64,000 nucleotides of DNA, taken from a virus. The notes below the pieces were generated by a model that was not told the DNA's origin, searched no databases, and saw nothing but the letters and a program-made list of their open reading frames with translations. The translations under genes and the position numbers were made by a program. The stretch is from positions 35,987 to 99,986 of the IMG/VR virus record IMGVR_UViG_3300025941_000016; one strand, given 5' to 3'. Positions 10,942-41,123 of this stretch are shown here, piece by piece (position 1 is the stretch's first letter; each line of letters starts with the position of its first letter).

Positions 10942-11367
10942 TCAGAACAAAGTCCGCCGGATCGCCGCCAGCGCGGCTGTCTGCATTTCGCCGTACGCCG
11001 TGCTGTAAGCCGGCTGCACGTAAGGCCGAGGTGGCAGTGTTGTGCGATGGTGCCGACCGGTGGCCCCACCCAGTTCCTGGATGCGGGCGTAGACGACTGA
11101 CGGGCCGACGGCGACATAGCCGGGGCGGGTTTCGACCATCACGGAGCGGCGAAGGGTGCCGCTGATGACCGCTGGTGGCGCGCCGGGCGGGGACGGGGTG
11201 GGTGTGCCTCTGCGATGGGAGTAGACCGACAGCTGCCGTTTGATCGACGCCTCGGCGACCGCCGCGCCAGCCTTCGCGCCTGCCATCGCGGCAAGGTCAG
11301 CCTTGGCGCCGAGCGCGTTCAGTCCGGCGAGCAACGCCTCCACGTCGACCCGGAGGGCCATCACCAT
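10942..11367 (-). CDS. HK97 gp10-like neck/tail-completion protein
   Basis: Motifs PPAVISGTLRRS, VYARIQELGG and LPPRPYVQPA. Confidence 0.8.
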   Translation of the reverse strand: MVMALRVDVEALLAGLNALGAKADLAAMAGAKAGAAVAEASIKRQLSVYSHRRGTPTPSPPGAPPAVISGTLRRSVMVETRPGYVAVGPSVVYARIQELGGATGRHHRTTLPPRPYVQPAYSTAYGEMQTAALAAIRRTLF

Positions 11368-11640
11368 CAGCGCGACCTCGCGTCCATCTCGGCGCGGCGC
11401 ACATCCCGGTCGTGTTTACGCTGCCGGCCCTCGTCGATCGCTCGCATCATCAGCGGCCAGTCGTCGACCAGCGGCAGCGGCAACGCGTCAACCTGGTCGG
11501 GTGTCCAATGCCACCGTTCCGCGTACCAGGAGTAGAGCTGGGCGTCGTCGATCCAGTCGGGTAGCGGCGCTTGGTTGGGTCGGAGTTCTTCGCCCTCGGC
11601 GAGTTGGCTCAGTCGCGCGAGGGCACGGAAGGGGACTGGG
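11367..11640 (-). CDS. Tail assembly chaperone C-terminal (gpT-like) extension, probably reached by a -1 frameshift
   Basis: Motif ERWHWTPDQVDALPL lies in the -1 frame overlapping the end of 11609..12046 and has no convincing start of its own. The 5' boundary is approximate. Confidence 0.65.
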
Positions 11641-12046
11641 GGTCTGTGCTGGGCTTGGTGTCCCGCCGTCCGTTGATCTTGTCGAGGACGGGCTTCAGCT
11701 CGTCTTCCAGGACGTCGATGATGTCCAGGTCGATGGCAGCAAGCGCCTCGTCGTCGAGATCGAGGGGGATCGGAACCGGCTCGCCGCTCTCCGGGTCCTT
11801 CAGCGACCAGGCGACGACCCAATGCCGGAGCAACGCATCGAACGACGCGACCGACGCCGCCCCGACATTGGTGACCTTGCCGTCATCGTCGAGTTCCACA
11901 ACGCTGAACGAGGCGACCCGCAGATCATCCCGGTCGCCCTTCGTGACCCGCTTGGGGTTGCGGATCTCGGCCCACTGGCCGGTGCCGTAGTCCTCGGTGG
12001 CTGGCAGGTCGACGCGCACGGTCTGCGCGCGAGGGTTGTTGGACAA
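11609..12046 (-). CDS. Tail assembly chaperone (gpG-like)
   Basis: Acidic protein with LLRHWVVAWSL...PVPIP, located between tail tube and tape measure genes. Confidence 0.75.
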   Translation of the reverse strand: MSNNPRAQTVRVDLPATEDYGTGQWAEIRNPKRVTKGDRDDLRVASFSVVELDDDGKVTNVGAASVASFDALLRHWVVAWSLKDPESGEPVPIPLDLDDEALAAIDLDIIDVLEDELKPVLDKINGRRDTKPSTDPQSPSVPSRD

Positions 12047-35130: not shown

Positions 35131-35931
35131 CTACCCCTCGTCGTCGTCTTCCTCGTCGGCGGTGTCCTGTTGTCCCTGCCGCCGGGCGCCGAGTGCTGCC
35201 AGGGCGGCGGCGACCGCGGACGGGTCCATGTGGCGGGTGCTGCCGACGGTGTCGTGCTGGGCGATGTCGACCGGCGGTGGGGGTGCCGGTTCGGTTGGTT
35301 CCGCCTCAGCCTCGGCGTTGCCCAGCGTGTCGTCGAGTGCGCCGGAGGAGATGCCAGGGACGTAGCCCATGGCCTGCGCGTCGGCCAGCGGCATCGTGTC
35401 GGCGATCACTGCACATCGGCAACCCGGATGGGTGGGGCAAATGCCGGCGGGTGGGTCGGTGTCGAGCGGGTACGGCCCGTCGTCCTGGTTGGTCTGGCAG
35501 TCCTGGCACACCCTGACGTCGTTAGCCGTGAGGATCGAGTAGGCCTCAACAACGCCCGACGTCCTGTACGACTCGATCGACGCGGCTGTCATCGCCCGCG
35601 CCATCTCAGTAGTGGCAACCATTCCGGCCCACTGGGGGTCGTCCAACACTCCGCGCAGGGTGCGGGCCAAGGTGTCGGCCGAGTCGCCGCGGGCCACCGC
35701 ATCGGCCACAGCGGAGGCGAGACGGTCAAGGCGGTGGTCTTCGATCGAGGCGAGCAACGAGCCGCGTTGTGCTGCCCGGTCGGACCAGCTTGGGTTGCGG
35801 CCGACGGCGGTGGCGATCAGCTCGTCCAGCTTGGCGGCCTGGCGGGCGGCGGGGATGTTGCCCGGAGTCCAGGCGTCCCAGTTGATGGTTGCAGAGAGCG
35901 GCTGACCAGCCAAAATGCACCGTCCGGCCAT
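35131..35931 (-). CDS. Mu gpF/SPP1 gp7-like head morphogenesis protein, C-terminal part
   Basis: MVATTEMARA, DVRVCQDC, PTHPGCRC. Confidence 0.85.
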   Translation of the reverse strand: MAGRCILAGQPLSATINWDAWTPGNIPAARQAAKLDELIATAVGRNPSWSDRAAQRGSLLASIEDHRLDRLASAVADAVARGDSADTLARTLRGVLDDPQWAGMVATTEMARAMTAASIESYRTSGVVEAYSILTANDVRVCQDCQTNQDDGPYPLDTDPPAGICPTHPGCRCAVIADTMPLADAQAMGYVPGISSGALDDTLGNAEAEAEPTEPAPPPPVDIAQHDTVGSTRHMDPSAVAAALAALGARRQGQQDTADEEDDDEG

Positions 35932-35968: not shown

Positions 35969-36193
35969 ATGGAACGGGAGCTAATCGGCCTCCGCATCGG
36001 AGGTGAAGGACTCGCCCGCGTTCGCCGCATCGCCGGAGCGCTCAACGGCGACGGCAACCCGAGAAGCAAGCTCAGCCCGACCCTCCGTGCGGTCATCGCT
36101 GATGGGTTGGCTGCACGTGAGGTCGCCTGCAAGAAGCAACACCGAGGGCCAATCGCCGCCGGGGTGTGTGGCCACTGTGGAAGGGAACTCTGA
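35969..36193 (+). CDS. Ribbon-helix-helix-like protein with Zn ribbon (moron, leaderless)
   Basis: TACAAT at 35956-35961 lies 7 nt before the ATG. LIGLRI...LSPTLRAVIADGL, then C...H...CGHC. Confidence 0.65.
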   Translation: MERELIGLRIGGEGLARVRRIAGALNGDGNPRSKLSPTLRAVIADGLAAREVACKKQHRGPIAAGVCGHCGREL

Positions 36194-36585
36194 TGGAGCA
36201 GAGAACGGCACAGACGGCCACGGTCGATGTCCTGACCGCTGAGGTTCGGGTCCTCATGATCGGTTCGCGGCAGGTCACCATGTCGGTGTACAAGCAACTC
36301 GACTGGATCGCGCCCGACAAGATCGTGCCGTTCGGTCGGATCAACGACGGTGAACGTTGGGTGAGCAGTGACGTCGAGCGACTTGTCGTCGTAGGCCAGA
36401 ATCCGGACGATGGTTCGCTCGTGCGGGCGCGCTTCCGTCGCCAGCACAGAGGCACCGTTGTCAGGACCGGCGAGAAGTTGATCAAGTACAGCGACTCTGC
36501 CGATGCGTCGATGCGTCTCTGCACCCGCTCCGAGTGGGAGGCTGCCGAGGCGCTGCCCCTGATCGTCCTCGCAGGTCTCCGCTGA
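36193..36585 (+). CDS. Phage hypothetical protein (second moron gene)
   Basis: TGATG overlap with the previous gene; TATVDVLTAEVRVLMIGSRQVTMSVYKQLD. Confidence 0.7.
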   Translation: MEQRTAQTATVDVLTAEVRVLMIGSRQVTMSVYKQLDWIAPDKIVPFGRINDGERWVSSDVERLVVVGQNPDDGSLVRARFRRQHRGTVVRTGEKLIKYSDSADASMRLCTRSEWEAAEALPLIVLAGLR

Positions 36586-36639
36586 GCGGTTATGCGTGCT
36601 GGCGCCGTGGCCGCCTCAAGCTGCGACGCCAGCACGGTC

Positions 36640-37140
36640 TCAGAAGATGCTGCGGCCACCACGGGGTGCGCCAGGTGCTTCGCGCATGAGCTGATCCAGA
36701 TCGCGCAGTTCGCGTTTCCGCCCGGGATCGTCGGGCTTCGCGGCCTTGAACGTAGGTGTCGGCCGGTGATGTAGCGGCACTGCGACTGTCGGTGGCACTG
36801 ACGGTTTCACCCGCGCCACAGCGTCGTCTGCCGCTACCTCCCCGGCTTTCCACCCTGCCCGGTAGACCTCGGTCAGCGCCGGGCCGAGCACACCCTTACG
36901 GGCGTGCTGGTCGAGGATCATCCGTATCTCAGCCCGCAGAACCGCCGGGTCGGTGGTCGTCCCAGACGGCCAGCGGGACGTGAGCACGTTCGCAACCTGC
37001 TCACAGTCGATAATCCGGCTGGCAGCCTGGGATACCTGCTTCGCGAAGCGCGGCCCTAGCTGGTCGTGGGCTTGGAAGCCCAGCCATGCCGCCCGCTCCC
37101 GTTGCCGGTTGCGGGCTTTCGGCTCGCCCCCCGCCACCAC
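36640..37140 (-). CDS. N-terminal part of the gpF-like protein, overlapping the portal 3' end in the +1 frame
   Basis: Helical segment LTEVYRAGWKAGEVAA of the kind that precedes the WxxWxPG motif found in 35131..35931. Confidence 0.55.
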   Translation of the reverse strand: MVAGGEPKARNRQRERAAWLGFQAHDQLGPRFAKQVSQAASRIIDCEQVANVLTSRWPSGTTTDPAVLRAEIRMILDQHARKGVLGPALTEVYRAGWKAGEVAADDAVARVKPSVPPTVAVPLHHRPTPTFKAAKPDDPGRKRELRDLDQLMREAPGAPRGGRSIF

Positions 37141-39139
37141 CCGCCTTGCGGAGCTCGGCCGCGGTCGCCTTCGCCAGGCTTGCGGCGTCGGCGGGGGAGT
37201 CGTCGAGGACCATCGTGTTCAACGTCCGCGCCGTGTCGTCGTCCACCGTCGTGAACGTGAACGGCCGAGCAGGTGTCTTCCCCGTCTTGGCGAGACGCGC
37301 CGCCCAGGTGGCGAACGCGGACAGTTCGGCGGCACTGGCGGACTTCTCCGCACCCTTCACGGGCTTCTGTGTGTCGCCGGACTTGCCGTTCGCCTTGACT
37401 GGGGGCTTCGAGCCAGCATCCGGGCTGCCCTCGTCGGGGGTCTGCTCGTCGCCGTCCTCCCGCTCGCTGGCGGGAGTGTTCAGCGGCTTCCCGGAGGGCA
37501 GGTTGCCGGCTTGCAGGTTCTGCTTCGCCGCCTCCGCACCGGCCTTGACCGCCTCACCCTGGGCTTCCTGCTGCTCCTGCAACCCTCGCAGGAACTGGGG
37601 GCCCATCCTCGACAGGATGTAGGGTTCGTCGGCTTCGGGCATGTCGGCGTAGGGGGCTAGGCCCATTTCGTCGCGGGCCTCGTTCAGCGTCATCCGGCCC
37701 GACTCGACACGGGCCAGCAGGACGGCGTCGGCGGCGGCTTCGTCTTCCTCTTCCAGGCCGAGGAACCGGAACTCGATCGCCGGGTCCAAACCCAGATACC
37801 GGCGGTTGATCATGTTGAAGATGCCGGAAAGCCACTTCGCCCACGGCAGGATCATCTTCCGGTACTGGATGTTCTCCTGACCCTCGTGATAGCTCGCCCC
37901 ACCCAGTCCGCCGGTTTCGATGAACCCGATCTCCGCCGGGGTCACCTGAAACGACGCGCAGATCAACTTGACGATGTAGGTGTCATACTCGGGCTTGTAC
38001 AGCTCCGAGTTGTCCGCGAACTTCGCCAGCTTCCCACCCGGCAGGCCGATCTGGATGCGCTGCCGCTCCGCGAGATCCCCGGCAAGCTGCGTGTTGATGC
38101 TGCGCCGCCAGCGTTGCATCTCATCCGGCGTCATCCGGACGCTCTCCGGCAACTCCATCAGCGCCAGGGGCAGCGCGTTCGAGTCGAACTGGCGGGTCAT
38201 CCACTCGGCACGCTTCATCCACAGATTGATCCGCACCAGGGCGTTCTCCACCGGGCCGAAGCCGTAAGGGGACGACACCCGCTTGTTCCGCACCGAGTAG
38301 ATCAGCTCGTCGGCTGACCTGCCACCATCAACCGTGCCATCCTTGCCGATGGGTGCGGTGAACTCGCCGCGGGGGAAGCCATACAGGATCTCTTGGAACG
38401 CAGGGTCCGGAGGCTTCGGCCTACGCCCACGATGATCCAACAGCGGCTTGACAACGTCACCTGACATGTTCCACAGCGCGTAGAGATCATTGCCGTAGGT
38501 CAGATTCGCGTGCAGCGGCCAGGCGTCAAGGACCAGCACCTCTTCGAGGCCCACCCACAGCCAGTCGGCGAACTCCAAACCCTCGTCACGGTCCGGGGTC
38601 TGCCAGAAGTCCATCGCCTTGGCGATCTGCGGGGCCAGCTTCTCGCGAAGCTTCTGCTTCGCCTCCGTCTGCCGCAGACCTTCCAGTTCGGCCGCCGCGG
38701 CGATCGCCTTCTCGGAGACGACGATCGACCAGTCCAAACCGCAGACCTCGGTACGGATCACCCGCATGCAGTCCTGGACAATGTCCGTCCGCGCTGCGGC
38801 CCGTAGCGTGTCGAACGGGATGAGCCTGTGTTCGCCGCCGGGGATGTTCCAGCCGACCGGATATTCCCAGGCCCGCGGATCGCTGCGACCATCCGGCCGC
38901 ACCGGGTCGATGCCGTAGGGCGGCAGGGGGGTCAGCGGCCCGAACGGCACCGTGTACGGCAGCTCACGGGGCAGCGGCTCATACGAGCCGACCGGCATCC
39001 CGGATTGCATCGTCGCTAGGGCGTTGGCCTGAGCGGACATGTCCCGGGTTTGCGCGCCGACCGCACGGGCACCGGCCGCATAGCTCGCTTTGTCGAGTCG
39101 GCGGCGCTGCTGGGCACGGCGACGGCTACGGGAGGACAT
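37001..39139 (-). CDS. Portal protein
   Basis: Follows terL. Motifs VGLEEVLVLDA, ELIYSVRN, SPYGFGPVE, ICASFQVTPAEIG, SGRMTLNEARDEMGL. Confidence 0.93.
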   Translation of the reverse strand: MSSRSRRRAQQRRRLDKASYAAGARAVGAQTRDMSAQANALATMQSGMPVGSYEPLPRELPYTVPFGPLTPLPPYGIDPVRPDGRSDPRAWEYPVGWNIPGGEHRLIPFDTLRAAARTDIVQDCMRVIRTEVCGLDWSIVVSEKAIAAAAELEGLRQTEAKQKLREKLAPQIAKAMDFWQTPDRDEGLEFADWLWVGLEEVLVLDAWPLHANLTYGNDLYALWNMSGDVVKPLLDHRGRRPKPPDPAFQEILYGFPRGEFTAPIGKDGTVDGGRSADELIYSVRNKRVSSPYGFGPVENALVRINLWMKRAEWMTRQFDSNALPLALMELPESVRMTPDEMQRWRRSINTQLAGDLAERQRIQIGLPGGKLAKFADNSELYKPEYDTYIVKLICASFQVTPAEIGFIETGGLGGASYHEGQENIQYRKMILPWAKWLSGIFNMINRRYLGLDPAIEFRFLGLEEEDEAAADAVLLARVESGRMTLNEARDEMGLAPYADMPEADEPYILSRMGPQFLRGLQEQQEAQGEAVKAGAEAAKQNLQAGNLPSGKPLNTPASEREDGDEQTPDEGSPDAGSKPPVKANGKSGDTQKPVKGAEKSASAAELSAFATWAARLAKTGKTPARPFTFTTVDDDTARTLNTMVLDDSPADAASLAKATAAELRKAGGGGGRAESPQPATGAGGMAGLPSPRPARAALREAGIPGCQPDYRL

Positions 39140-39155: not shown

Positions 39156-40669
39156 TCAGGTCAGGGGCCGTCTCCAGCCGTCCTGTGAGGTTTGGCCGGG
39201 GAACAGGTCTTCGATGCCCAACGGGGCTGGTGTCTCGTCGGGCGGAAGCTGGGGCTTCGGGCCGGCGGCGTCCTCTTGGGCGAAGACGTGGTTCATGTAG
39301 AACTGCATTCCGCCGATATCTGCAAGATCAGTCATGGCCCAGACCAATGCGTCGACTCGGTTTGGACTCCAGTCGGCATCAGGAGTCCAACTGATCATCT
39401 CGTCTTCGAGGTCAGGTAGTCCGCCGATGTGATGGGCGCGGCCCTGCTCGTAGATCGCCGAGATCGGTTCGGCGCGGATCTTCTTACCGCGGCTGGCCGT
39501 GACCTTCGTGTATGCCACGTTGTGGTCGACATGGCGGATCGTCGACTCGACCATGTCCGCGCCGAAGTTCGTCTCCGCGACGATCCTGTCCGCCTTGTAC
39601 CGGTGGTAGGCGTCGACGGCCGCCCGAGCCCAACCATCCGGGCTGGCCTTCAAGGTGAGGTCTTCCAACACCCAGAAGTGTTCCTGCGCGTCGACGCCGG
39701 CTACGACGATGCCCGTGTGATCGGACTCGTCGTTCGCCGTACCCGCCGGGTCGATGGCGACGACGATGCGGACCAGGGTGGGCAGGTCGGTCAGCGCCCG
39801 ACGATGCTCGTCGATGTTGCCGCGGGTCCACAGGGCACCCGGGTTGTCGTCGAGGTATTCGCCGTACAGCTCCTGGCGGCCAAGACGGGTGCCCTCGTAG
39901 CGCTTGCGCAGTTCCGACAGGGCGGCAGCGGACAGGTTCGCCGCGTTGTCGAATGTCGAGCCGCGGGTGACGACTACCGAGCCGTCATCGCGGCCCATCC
40001 AGTCCTTGAGCAGGATCGATGGCTTCGGTGTGGTCGTGACGATGACCTGCGGGCGGCCGATGCGTAGCGCCGGGGCTAGGCCCTCAGTCCAGGACGCGCG
40101 GGCGTAACGCCACTTGGCAATTTCATCGAACCAACCGCCGGACAGGTTCAGGCCACGGCCTACGTCGGCGTCATCCGCACCCAGCATGTGGATGATCTGG
40201 CCTGTGCTCAGCCTGATCTGCCAGAGCGACCGGTTATACACGTAGTCGACGTGGCGGTTGTTGAGCACGGTGCGAACACCGGCCGGACCTTCGACGCAGA
40301 CCAGCCGAGCGTCGGAGAACGTTTCGGCGACGATCGCCCATTCGGTGGGAGAGCCGTCGGGAGCGGTTGGGGTGTCGAGGACGCGCTGAACCAGCGTCTC
40401 GGCACCCGTTCGACTTTTCCCCAACCACGTCCCGCCAGGATCAGCCAGACGAGCCAGTCGCCGTCAGGTGCCCGCTGGGCGGTCCGTGCATGCTTCCACG
40501 TAAACGTGCCGTGGGGTTCGCCGTCACAGTCGTCGAGGCCGCACGCCCACGGCTTGTCTGCCGTAACGGTGACGGCTTCGAGTTGCTGGCGCAGTTCGAG
40601 CTCCCGCCGAAGGAGGGCGAGGCGTCGTTCAGCTAGGGTCGCCGGTTTCGGCAAGGTCGCGGTGGACAA
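39156..40669 (-). CDS. terL: Terminase large subunit, joined by a -1 frameshift at 40415-40421 (about 504 aa)
   Basis: The 0 frame from TTG 40669 gives WLILAGRGWGK. The -1 frame continues SRTGAE, Walker B WFDE, VTTTP and nuclease motifs AIDPA, D-x-TG, NRVDALVWA. Confidence 0.9.
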
Positions 40670-41123
40670 GGCGGCGCTCCAACTCGGCGATCTCCGCTTC
40701 GATCTGGCCGACGGTTCGGACCTCAACCTTGGTCGGGGCGTCAAGGCCGAGGAGCTTCGCCCGACGGTCTTGGATCTTCAACAGCCGGTCGATGGCGGCG
40801 AGGATGGGTGCGTCGTCTTCCAACGGTTTGCCGTCGTGCCAGATGACGCCGTCTTTCTGGACGGTGTAGTGCTTGGCTTCGAGTACCTGCATGCCGGCCT
40901 GGTAGAGCCGGTCGAGGCGTTCGAGTTCGAGGGCGCGTAGTTCGTCGGCGGTTTCGCGGACGTCGGCGGCGATGATCCGCTGGACGGCGCGGTAGGCGAC
41001 GCCGCGGTTCGGGTAGCGGAGTTCGGTGGCGATCTGCTCGTAGGTCTTGCCTGCGATCCGCATGCGGGCGGCGTCGGCGTCGCGGGCGGCGGTCGCTGGG
41101 TTGTTGCGGGCGCGGGGCGGCAT
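40629..41123 (-). CDS. terS: Terminase small subunit (HTH)
   Basis: MRIAGKTYEQIATELRY...ELERLDRL...RRAKLLGLDAP; directly upstream of terL. Confidence 0.85.
   Translation of the reverse strand: MPPRARNNPATAARDADAARMRIAGKTYEQIATELRYPNRGVAYRAVQRIIAADVRETADELRALELERLDRLYQAGMQVLEAKHYTVQKDGVIWHDGKPLEDDAPILAAIDRLLKIQDRRAKLLGLDAPTKVEVRTVGQIEAEIAELERRLVHRDLAETGDPS

Follow-up and report, generated by a model that had tools for sequence, protein, structure and literature searches.

A large terminase gene divided over two reading frames

The window analysed here is a 64,000-nt stretch of virus DNA that forms part of a 99,986-bp IMG/VR record (IMGVR_UViG_3300025941_000016, positions 35,987 to 99,986). 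The record encodes RlaP, DUF5131, a helicase, a GH25 lysin, a portal protein, MuF, a 1,150-aa tape measure protein and a minor tail protein, together with a ParB-like protein and a tyrosine recombinase, and as a whole it looks like a phage, specifically an uncultured soil actinobacterial phage. For a sister variant, two assemblers produced contigs of 115,125 and 115,143 nt, suggesting that the full genome is close to 115 kb.

The large terminase is indispensable to tailed phages for DNA packaging, and terL is this phage's only large-terminase gene. It lies on the minus strand and changes frame at the heptamer G GGA AAA (40421-40415). The 0 frame opens at TTG 40669, 7 nt after a GGAG (40680-40677), reads GGA CGT GGT TGG GGA AAA GTC through the break and stops at 40210-40208, giving a 153-aa product (P0001) with no Pfam match. 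From 40415, the last A of AAA, the -1 frame is open for 419 codons, to 39156, and its product matches Terminase_6N (PF03237, E 9.4e-13) and Terminase_6C (PF17289, E 2.3e-13) in Pfam; as an ORF, this C part formally begins at TTG 40424. The Walker A motif (G-x4-GK[ST]) is divided over the two frames as encoded, and GRGWGKS is whole only in the -1 read-through, in which a slip at the heptamer yields a 504-aa TerL. The gene directly upstream, whose stop overlaps the terL start region, has no Pfam match, and from its position we infer that it is terS. The features of the locus are as follows.

40629..41123, minus strand: 164-aa gene preceding terL, at the place of the small terminase (ORF; phrog_645, E 1e-31)
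40415..40669, minus strand: terL N part, 0 frame, 85 codons from TTG 40669 to Lys AAA 40417-40415, ending ...WLILAGRGWGK (ORF; P0003 alignment)
40415..40421, minus strand: slippery G GGA AAA heptamer, register X XXY YYZ, the probable site of an A5 to A4 deletion
40408..40414, minus strand: 7-nt spacer GTCGAAC
40370..40407, minus strand: interrupted 14-bp hairpin, 38 nt, dG -20.4 kcal/mol
40208..40414, minus strand: 0-frame run-on 3' of the heptamer, 68 codons to the stop at 40210-40208, with no recognisable family
39156..40415, minus strand: terL C part, -1 frame, 419 codons (SRTGAE... to the stop), ATPase and nuclease domains (Pfam; P0003 alignment)

The initial annotation had read terL as split, with a 0-frame stop at 40208 after about 153 aa, had placed the heptamer, spacer and hairpin at 40421-40415, GTCGAAC and 40407-40370, and had proposed that a tandem -1 slip gives an intact Walker A motif in a protein of about 504 aa. 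On re-reading, the split and every coordinate proved correct, and the P-loop after the slip matches that of the nearest unbroken relative exactly. Its statement that the other long genes are intact holds for the ORFs of 1466, 1150, 871 and 712 aa, but is ambiguous at the portal/MuF junction.

At that junction (36121-37218), the portal ORF carries an odd tail past a G6 tract (~37128-37123) and shares sequence, in a different frame, with a MuF-like N part (36640-37143, with GTG starts at 37143/37140). Some 700 nt separate this N part from the gene with the Phage_Mu_F domain (35131-35931), and the gap holds a plus-strand ORF (36121-36585) with no family match. The arrangement may be a second frame problem, or merely a case of overlapping genes.

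The one-base break is genuine

Parts of this stretch occur in 13 public sequencing runs. Four of them were compared with the window. A 1,408-nt contig of the probable source run (X1; depth 26) spans the site and is identical to the window; a 24.5-kb contig from another study (X2) crosses it at depth 36 with no gap; and a 751-nt contig from a 2025 soil sample (X3) covers it with one substitution and no gap. Among the pieces listed for the fourth run, X4, none spans the site. The form with four A residues (A4) is therefore carried by contigs of three runs from three studies, at depths of up to 36. The C-part ORF is present in at least four assemblies (JGI, 99,986 nt; ENA, 30,766 nt; Logan/ENA, 115,143 nt; JGI, 115,125 nt). 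It is 422 aa long on the 30,766-nt ENA contig and on JGI contigs of up to 99,986 nt, and 742 aa long, intein included, on the 115,143-nt (Logan/ENA) and 115,125-nt (JGI) contigs, and every copy starts at the same TTG, as M/L-GKSRTG. Since an unbroken gene would be expected to give about 504 or about 824 aa, these lengths bring an artefact near to exclusion.

An extra base lost in assembly had been named from the start as an alternative. Three runs have contigs with A4, and at least four assemblies from different pipelines agree on it, so that this is not borne out: the break is genuine DNA, not an assembly error. The site is homopolymeric and the runs come without a record of their sequencing platform, which would favour a true sequence of A5, but given the concordance of contigs and pipelines we consider this reading extremely improbable.

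Unbroken relatives and the history of the break

Nearest to the window gene is P0003 (WP_203012400.1), a TerL of 503 aa from Frankia sp. AgW1.1 that is about 90% identical at the amino acid level and is encoded in one frame. The 85-aa N part of the window gene aligns to P0003 residues 1-85 without gaps at 89% identity, the C part aligns to residues 86-466 at 90% identity, and the two abut at residue 85/86 with no residue gained or lost. P0003 carries its P-loop in one frame as GRGWGKSRTG (fuller stretch, GRGWGKSRTGAETLVQRV). More distant genes, L004 (from a Frankia symbiont, 74%), L002 (65%) and L003 (61%), are single ORFs as well, and where L003 has TGG GGA AAA ACT CGG ACG GGT the window has TGG GGA AAA -GT CGA ACG GGT. 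A loose end at 40374 that matches L002 shows that the same sample also holds an unbroken, L002-like relative.

No frame break was found in relatives at 61-90% identity (L002, L003, L004 and P0003 to P0010, all in one frame), nor any broken P-loop among the best 120 homologues. Homologues of 401-429 aa might be read as split genes, a reading we rejected, those read being unbroken genes with miscalled starts. Pattern scans for the same break, three of IMG/VR and one of JGI metagenomes, returned at most a chance match in a MuF gene, and a scan for unbroken GGA-AAA-AGY versions returned only a distant low-GC phage; a further metagenome scan gave only L006, a 3' fragment with an intein. Among genomes related to the Frankia symbiont G001, 56 from its family and 400 from its class, searches recovered only the 74% relative, and phage and plasmid collections held relatives at 48% identity or less only.

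The initial annotation had proposed a programmed frameshift, and had named relatives that are all in frame as one half of what would count against it. The relatives at 61-90% identity present that half, and nothing points to an evolved programme. Because the relatives are unbroken, loss of one A from GGA AAA AGT (A5 to A4) offers the simplest history, and the break is recent and specific to the lineage.

Two genome backgrounds and a downstream intein

The break is present in two sub-variants with different genome backgrounds, one of which has an intein in terL. The X2 variant is 4-10% diverged from the window from 39852 down into the portal gene and cannot be aligned beyond 41148, and it has no differences over the 1,052 nt from 39853 to 40904. 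Otherwise diverged genomes thus share an identical block made up of the 5' two-thirds of terL and the 3' end of terS, which points to recent recombinational exchange of a block that carries the break. The identity of the sub-variants over this block also indicates that the break is young, and because they are identical around the site it offers neither covariation nor a test of selection since the deletion.

Outside the block, terL differs from the intein variant at 30 sites, 24 of them third positions of the -1 frame, and the portal gene is similar, with 14 of 17. Purifying selection has therefore acted in the past of these alleles; it may predate the deletion and does not amount to selection after it. 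As a pseudogene test, the terL sequence downstream of the break has no stop in 419 codons, and the 24/30 third-position divergence is to be read with the same reserve about its date.

The sister variant carries a 321-aa intein at RxDA-C, 987 letters where the window has 24. The corresponding features are these.

39345..39350, minus strand: empty intein site RVDA-LVWA, junction 39348/39347, filled in the sister variant
L006:166-1128: intein (C...HN-C; Intein_splicing and Hint_2, splicing blocks intact)
L006:381-1073: HNH_3 endonuclease ORF inside the intein, in a different frame

The middle of the intein is of low complexity in the terL frame because the HNH_3 gene is encoded there in a different frame, an unusual hybrid between an intein and a free-standing HEG. 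As the intein lies downstream of the frame break, it would be translated only after a shift. In the X1, X2 and X3 variants, terL and the portal gene are also set apart by 274 additional bases (window 39164-39174; L006:1299-1580), and this segment, which the window lacks, encodes a 93-aa ORF.

Slippery site, hairpin and codon context

In the 25,712 codons of the record there are 43 in-register XXXYYYZ heptamers, and in-register GGGAAAA is found at the terL site only. The record's genes hold 124 homopolymer runs of at least 5 bases; in only two of them would the loss of one base put a heptamer in register, and neither of these would have A or T as its A-site triplet. The terL heptamer itself is a by-product of the W-G-K codons, since unbroken L003 also has TGG GGA AAA.

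Taken alone, the hairpin at 40407-40370 (dG -20.4 kcal/mol) has a z of -3.0 against shuffles; among the genome's 45-nt coding windows it belongs to the most stable 5.4%, and with its flanks, over 86 nt, z is only -0.73. The unbroken relatives L002 (-17.4), L004 (-13.0) and L003 (-11.0) have weaker hairpins laid out in the same way, anchored on conserved T-G and T-P codons. Relative to P0003, one stem codon appears to have changed from Val to Leu, judging from the P0003 protein, and the first base of this codon is paired in the window hairpin.

The rarity of AAA, AGT and CGA in this genome, remarked on in the initial annotation, stands up to counting: they make up 13% of Lys, 4.7% of Ser and 8.1% of Arg codons, and GGA makes up 8.3% of Gly. 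The P-loop stretch is a local patch of low GC3 (0.6), and since the whole region shares this property, rare codons there are less surprising. The record has no tRNA gene and so encodes no shifty tRNA of its own, and no clear upstream SD-like element is visible at the heptamer. Transcriptional slippage was considered as another route and rejected, A4 and G4 being far below the run lengths known to cause it; such runs are far longer.

GGGAAAA is reported as the -1 site of the tail chaperone genes of Microbacterium phage Bush and mycobacteriophage TM4 (PMC11749239, PMC4626039), so that its role as a mycobacteriophage tail-chaperone slippery site, stated in the initial annotation, is documented, and this use in actinophages makes the heptamer credible in Actinobacteria. 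The searched text of an E. coli heptamer survey (PMC4066793) gives no value for GGGAAAA. The phage's own tail assembly chaperone ORFs (11609-12046 and 11367-11822, minus strand) would need a -1 shift near GAC CCC CAG (11609-11660); this site is a C-run and not a tandem heptamer, and is uninformative on GGGAAAA.

Breaks, insertions and inteins at the P-loop of other terminases

A family search with the N fragment of terL as query uncovered breaks of this type, in which V-E comes after GWGK, in two other lineages, represented by P0123 on a JGI contig of 14,597 nt and by the pair P0239/P0279 on two Logan contigs; read back from the proteins, this ending implies AAA-GT-NGA. The tails of P0239 and P0279 differ at three residues, each of which, as far as the proteins indicate, is compatible with a third-position change in the TerL frame. 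None of 33 IMG/VR relatives of P0123 (0/33) has a broken terL.

Other members of the family show different changes in the same stretch. One-base insertions are seen in P0190, P0226 and probably P0187, a double shift in P0181, and inteins directly after the P-loop GK in several TerLs (P0169, P0174, P0196, P0253); P0204 is also listed among the TerLs with an intein or insertion at the P-loop. Together these changes suggest a hot spot for indels and mobile elements, and the indels, by sequence, point to a hot spot either of mutation or of sequencing.

Possible rescue by a -1 slip, or loss of the gene

Does a gene broken in this way still make a terminase? We weighed rescue by slippage against a dead gene, and favour the first, with a probability of roughly 0.55: full-length TerL would be made by an obligatory -1 slip. 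A one-base deletion, A5 to A4, has struck the Walker A codons GGA AAA AGT of the phage's sole terL; the Gly and Lys tRNAs on GGA AAA would then slip back one base onto GGG AAA, the next codon would be AGU, and the protein would continue GKSRTGAE, as in P0003. A ribosome held up at the hairpin, 7 nt further on, would slip more readily, and the slip would supply enough TerL for the phage to be viable. On this account the site would be a young, compensated frameshift rather than an old and finely tuned regulatory device; the sequences show the deletion, its spread over samples, the signals and a reading that restores the protein exactly, and beyond them we infer shifting at a useful rate and the viability of the phage.

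Several observations argue for rescue. The break is found at depths of 26-36, in separate studies and on two mosaic backgrounds, and the slip would restore the P0003 sequence with no residue gained or lost. The place is also special, with only 2 of 124 homopolymer deletions creating a heptamer and about 5% of windows holding a hairpin so stable, and the heptamer is one that actinophage tail chaperones use (PMC11749239, PMC4626039). Downstream, the -1 frame is open for 419 codons with the third-position bias noted above (24/30, against 14/17 in the portal gene), the other long virion genes are open, and P0123 and P0239/P0279 have breaks of the same type. Other observations weigh against it. Relatives are all unbroken (L002-L004, P0003-P0010, the best 120 homologues and the 33 relatives of P0123) and the scans returned no second copy; the sub-variants are identical at the site, and the third-position pattern may predate the deletion. 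The W-G-K codons account for the heptamer, the hairpin is unremarkable in context (z -0.73) and has weaker forms in unbroken genes, and the 0-frame product resembles junk. The insertions and double shift in P0190, P0226, P0187 and P0181 are suggestive of a mutation or sequencing hot spot, and the ParB-like protein and tyrosine recombinase would permit persistence without packaging.

The serious competitor, to which we give less than even odds, is plain inactivation, in which a replication slip in the G4A5 run killed terL and the slippery appearance is incidental to where the indel fell. With its ParB-like and tyrosine recombinase genes the element could persist without packaging, as a prophage or phage-plasmid within a successful host clone, or it could be packaged by a co-resident relative; the same sample does hold an unbroken L002-like relative. 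A dead gene would also account for relatives that are all unbroken, for a break young enough to show no differences over 1,052 nt between sub-variants, for the gathering of insertions at the P-loop in other contigs, and for the ambiguity at the portal/MuF junction. Yet about 2% of homopolymer deletions would produce an in-register heptamer and about 5% of sites have such a hairpin. Depths of 26-36 in independent studies and on two mosaic backgrounds are hard to square with a phage that does not package, and no second lesion has appeared over 419 codons, with the long virion genes intact.

An adaptive version of the slip, in which selection keeps the break to set TerL dosage, to time packaging or to hide from defences, forms a subset of the favoured reading, and we consider it improbable. 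Four consecutive rare codons (GGA AAA AGT CGA), the probable Val to Leu change at a stem codon with a paired first base, the recurrence of the break type in P0123 and P0239/P0279, and the regulatory bypassing proposed after KGWG in the TerL of phiHau3 (PMC10732093) would be in its favour. Against it, the break is not conserved among relatives of the lineage, covariation cannot be measured with sub-variants identical at the site, GC3 is low (0.6) over the P-loop region and there is no sign of a regulatory input; moreover, each signal has a trivial origin, and the site was picked out by the initial annotation for its slippery look. A purpose in limiting dosage or evading defences is purely conjectural.

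A two-piece terminase, with the C part started at TTG 40424 (MGKSRTG...) and acting with or without the N fragment, is highly improbable: TTG 40424 does open the C-part ORF and is the gene callers' choice in all assemblies, but the cut would lie inside the P-loop, beyond the ATPase's first beta strand, no relative has this layout, no good Shine-Dalgarno sequence precedes TTG 40424, and the N fragment would bear 68 junk residues. An artefact, a two-piece enzyme and any other route are very improbable even when taken jointly.

If rescue by the slip is correct, a phage present in soils sampled at different dates makes an essential enzyme only in the shifted frame, with the shift inside its catalytic P-loop, and this would be a new kind of client for -1 frameshifting. 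The birth of a recoding site would be visible here, in a homopolymer that was slippery by chance and then lost one base. Gene callers split terL into two ORFs in every assembly, so automated pipelines would score such phages as defective. We can go one step further, although we think this unlikely as it stands: a Walker A break at G GGA AAA with a -1 slip might be a recurrent, selectable state in soil actinophages, with independent origins in the window, in P0123 and in P0239/P0279, acting as a translational throttle on packaging, and the window would then present such a site at its birth, one mutation away from an ordinary gene. Should the gene be dead instead, the P-loop codons (GGN AAR A..) would be an indel hot spot that mimics recoding signals.

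Relation to known recoding systems

The closest match for the favoured reading appears to be the 'savior' indel (PMC5009743). In herpes simplex virus thymidine kinase, an indel in a G-run is offset by low-level compensatory frameshifting (Atkins et al. 2016, PMC5009743). Both cases have a one-base indel in a homopolymer, a useless unshifted product and a rescue by slipping on the run; the thymidine kinase case concerns an animal virus under drug selection, whereas terL has a canonical tandem heptamer and a hairpin, and no known selective agent.

A literature search found no paper on -1 frameshifting in a large terminase, which agrees with the initial annotation, whose author knew of no such description for a terminase; recoding at the terminase P-loop had, however, already been proposed, as UUA-triggered translational bypassing in the TerL of Streptomyces phage phiHau3, prophage StrepC.1 and an S. 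catenulae prophage (PMC10732093, PMC5009743). There too the frame of an actinophage TerL is broken right after GWG and recoding is proposed as the sole route to the enzyme. In the phiHau3 group, inserts of 10 nt (or 7 nt) led by a rare TTA codon are hopped over, whereas at the terL site studied here there is no insert and no TTA, but one base fewer than in unbroken relatives, so that a -1 slip suffices. By a reading of the printed sequences, the phiHau3-group TerLs seem unrelated to that of the window.

Among -1 systems, terL shares with the tail chaperones (lambda G/GT type; Bush, TM4) a heptamer, a tandem -1 slip and the actinobacterial translation apparatus (PMC11749239, PMC4626039). Both tail chaperone products are functional and the shift is conserved across very distant phages, whereas for terL the unshifted product has no apparent use, an essential enzyme would depend wholly on the shift, and only one young lineage carries the break.

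The tau/gamma shift of E. coli dnaX uses A AAA AAG with an upstream SD-like element and a 3' hairpin. The likeness lies in a bacterial heptamer, a short spacer and a stem-loop; in dnaX, by contrast, shifting gives the shorter of two products that are both in use, and terL has no clear upstream SD-like element.

The relationship to P0003 suggests Frankia as the host. The P0003 contig (107,780 nt) is close to the size of a phage genome and comes from a cultured Frankia isolate, making P0003 an unbroken comparator in a culturable isolate.
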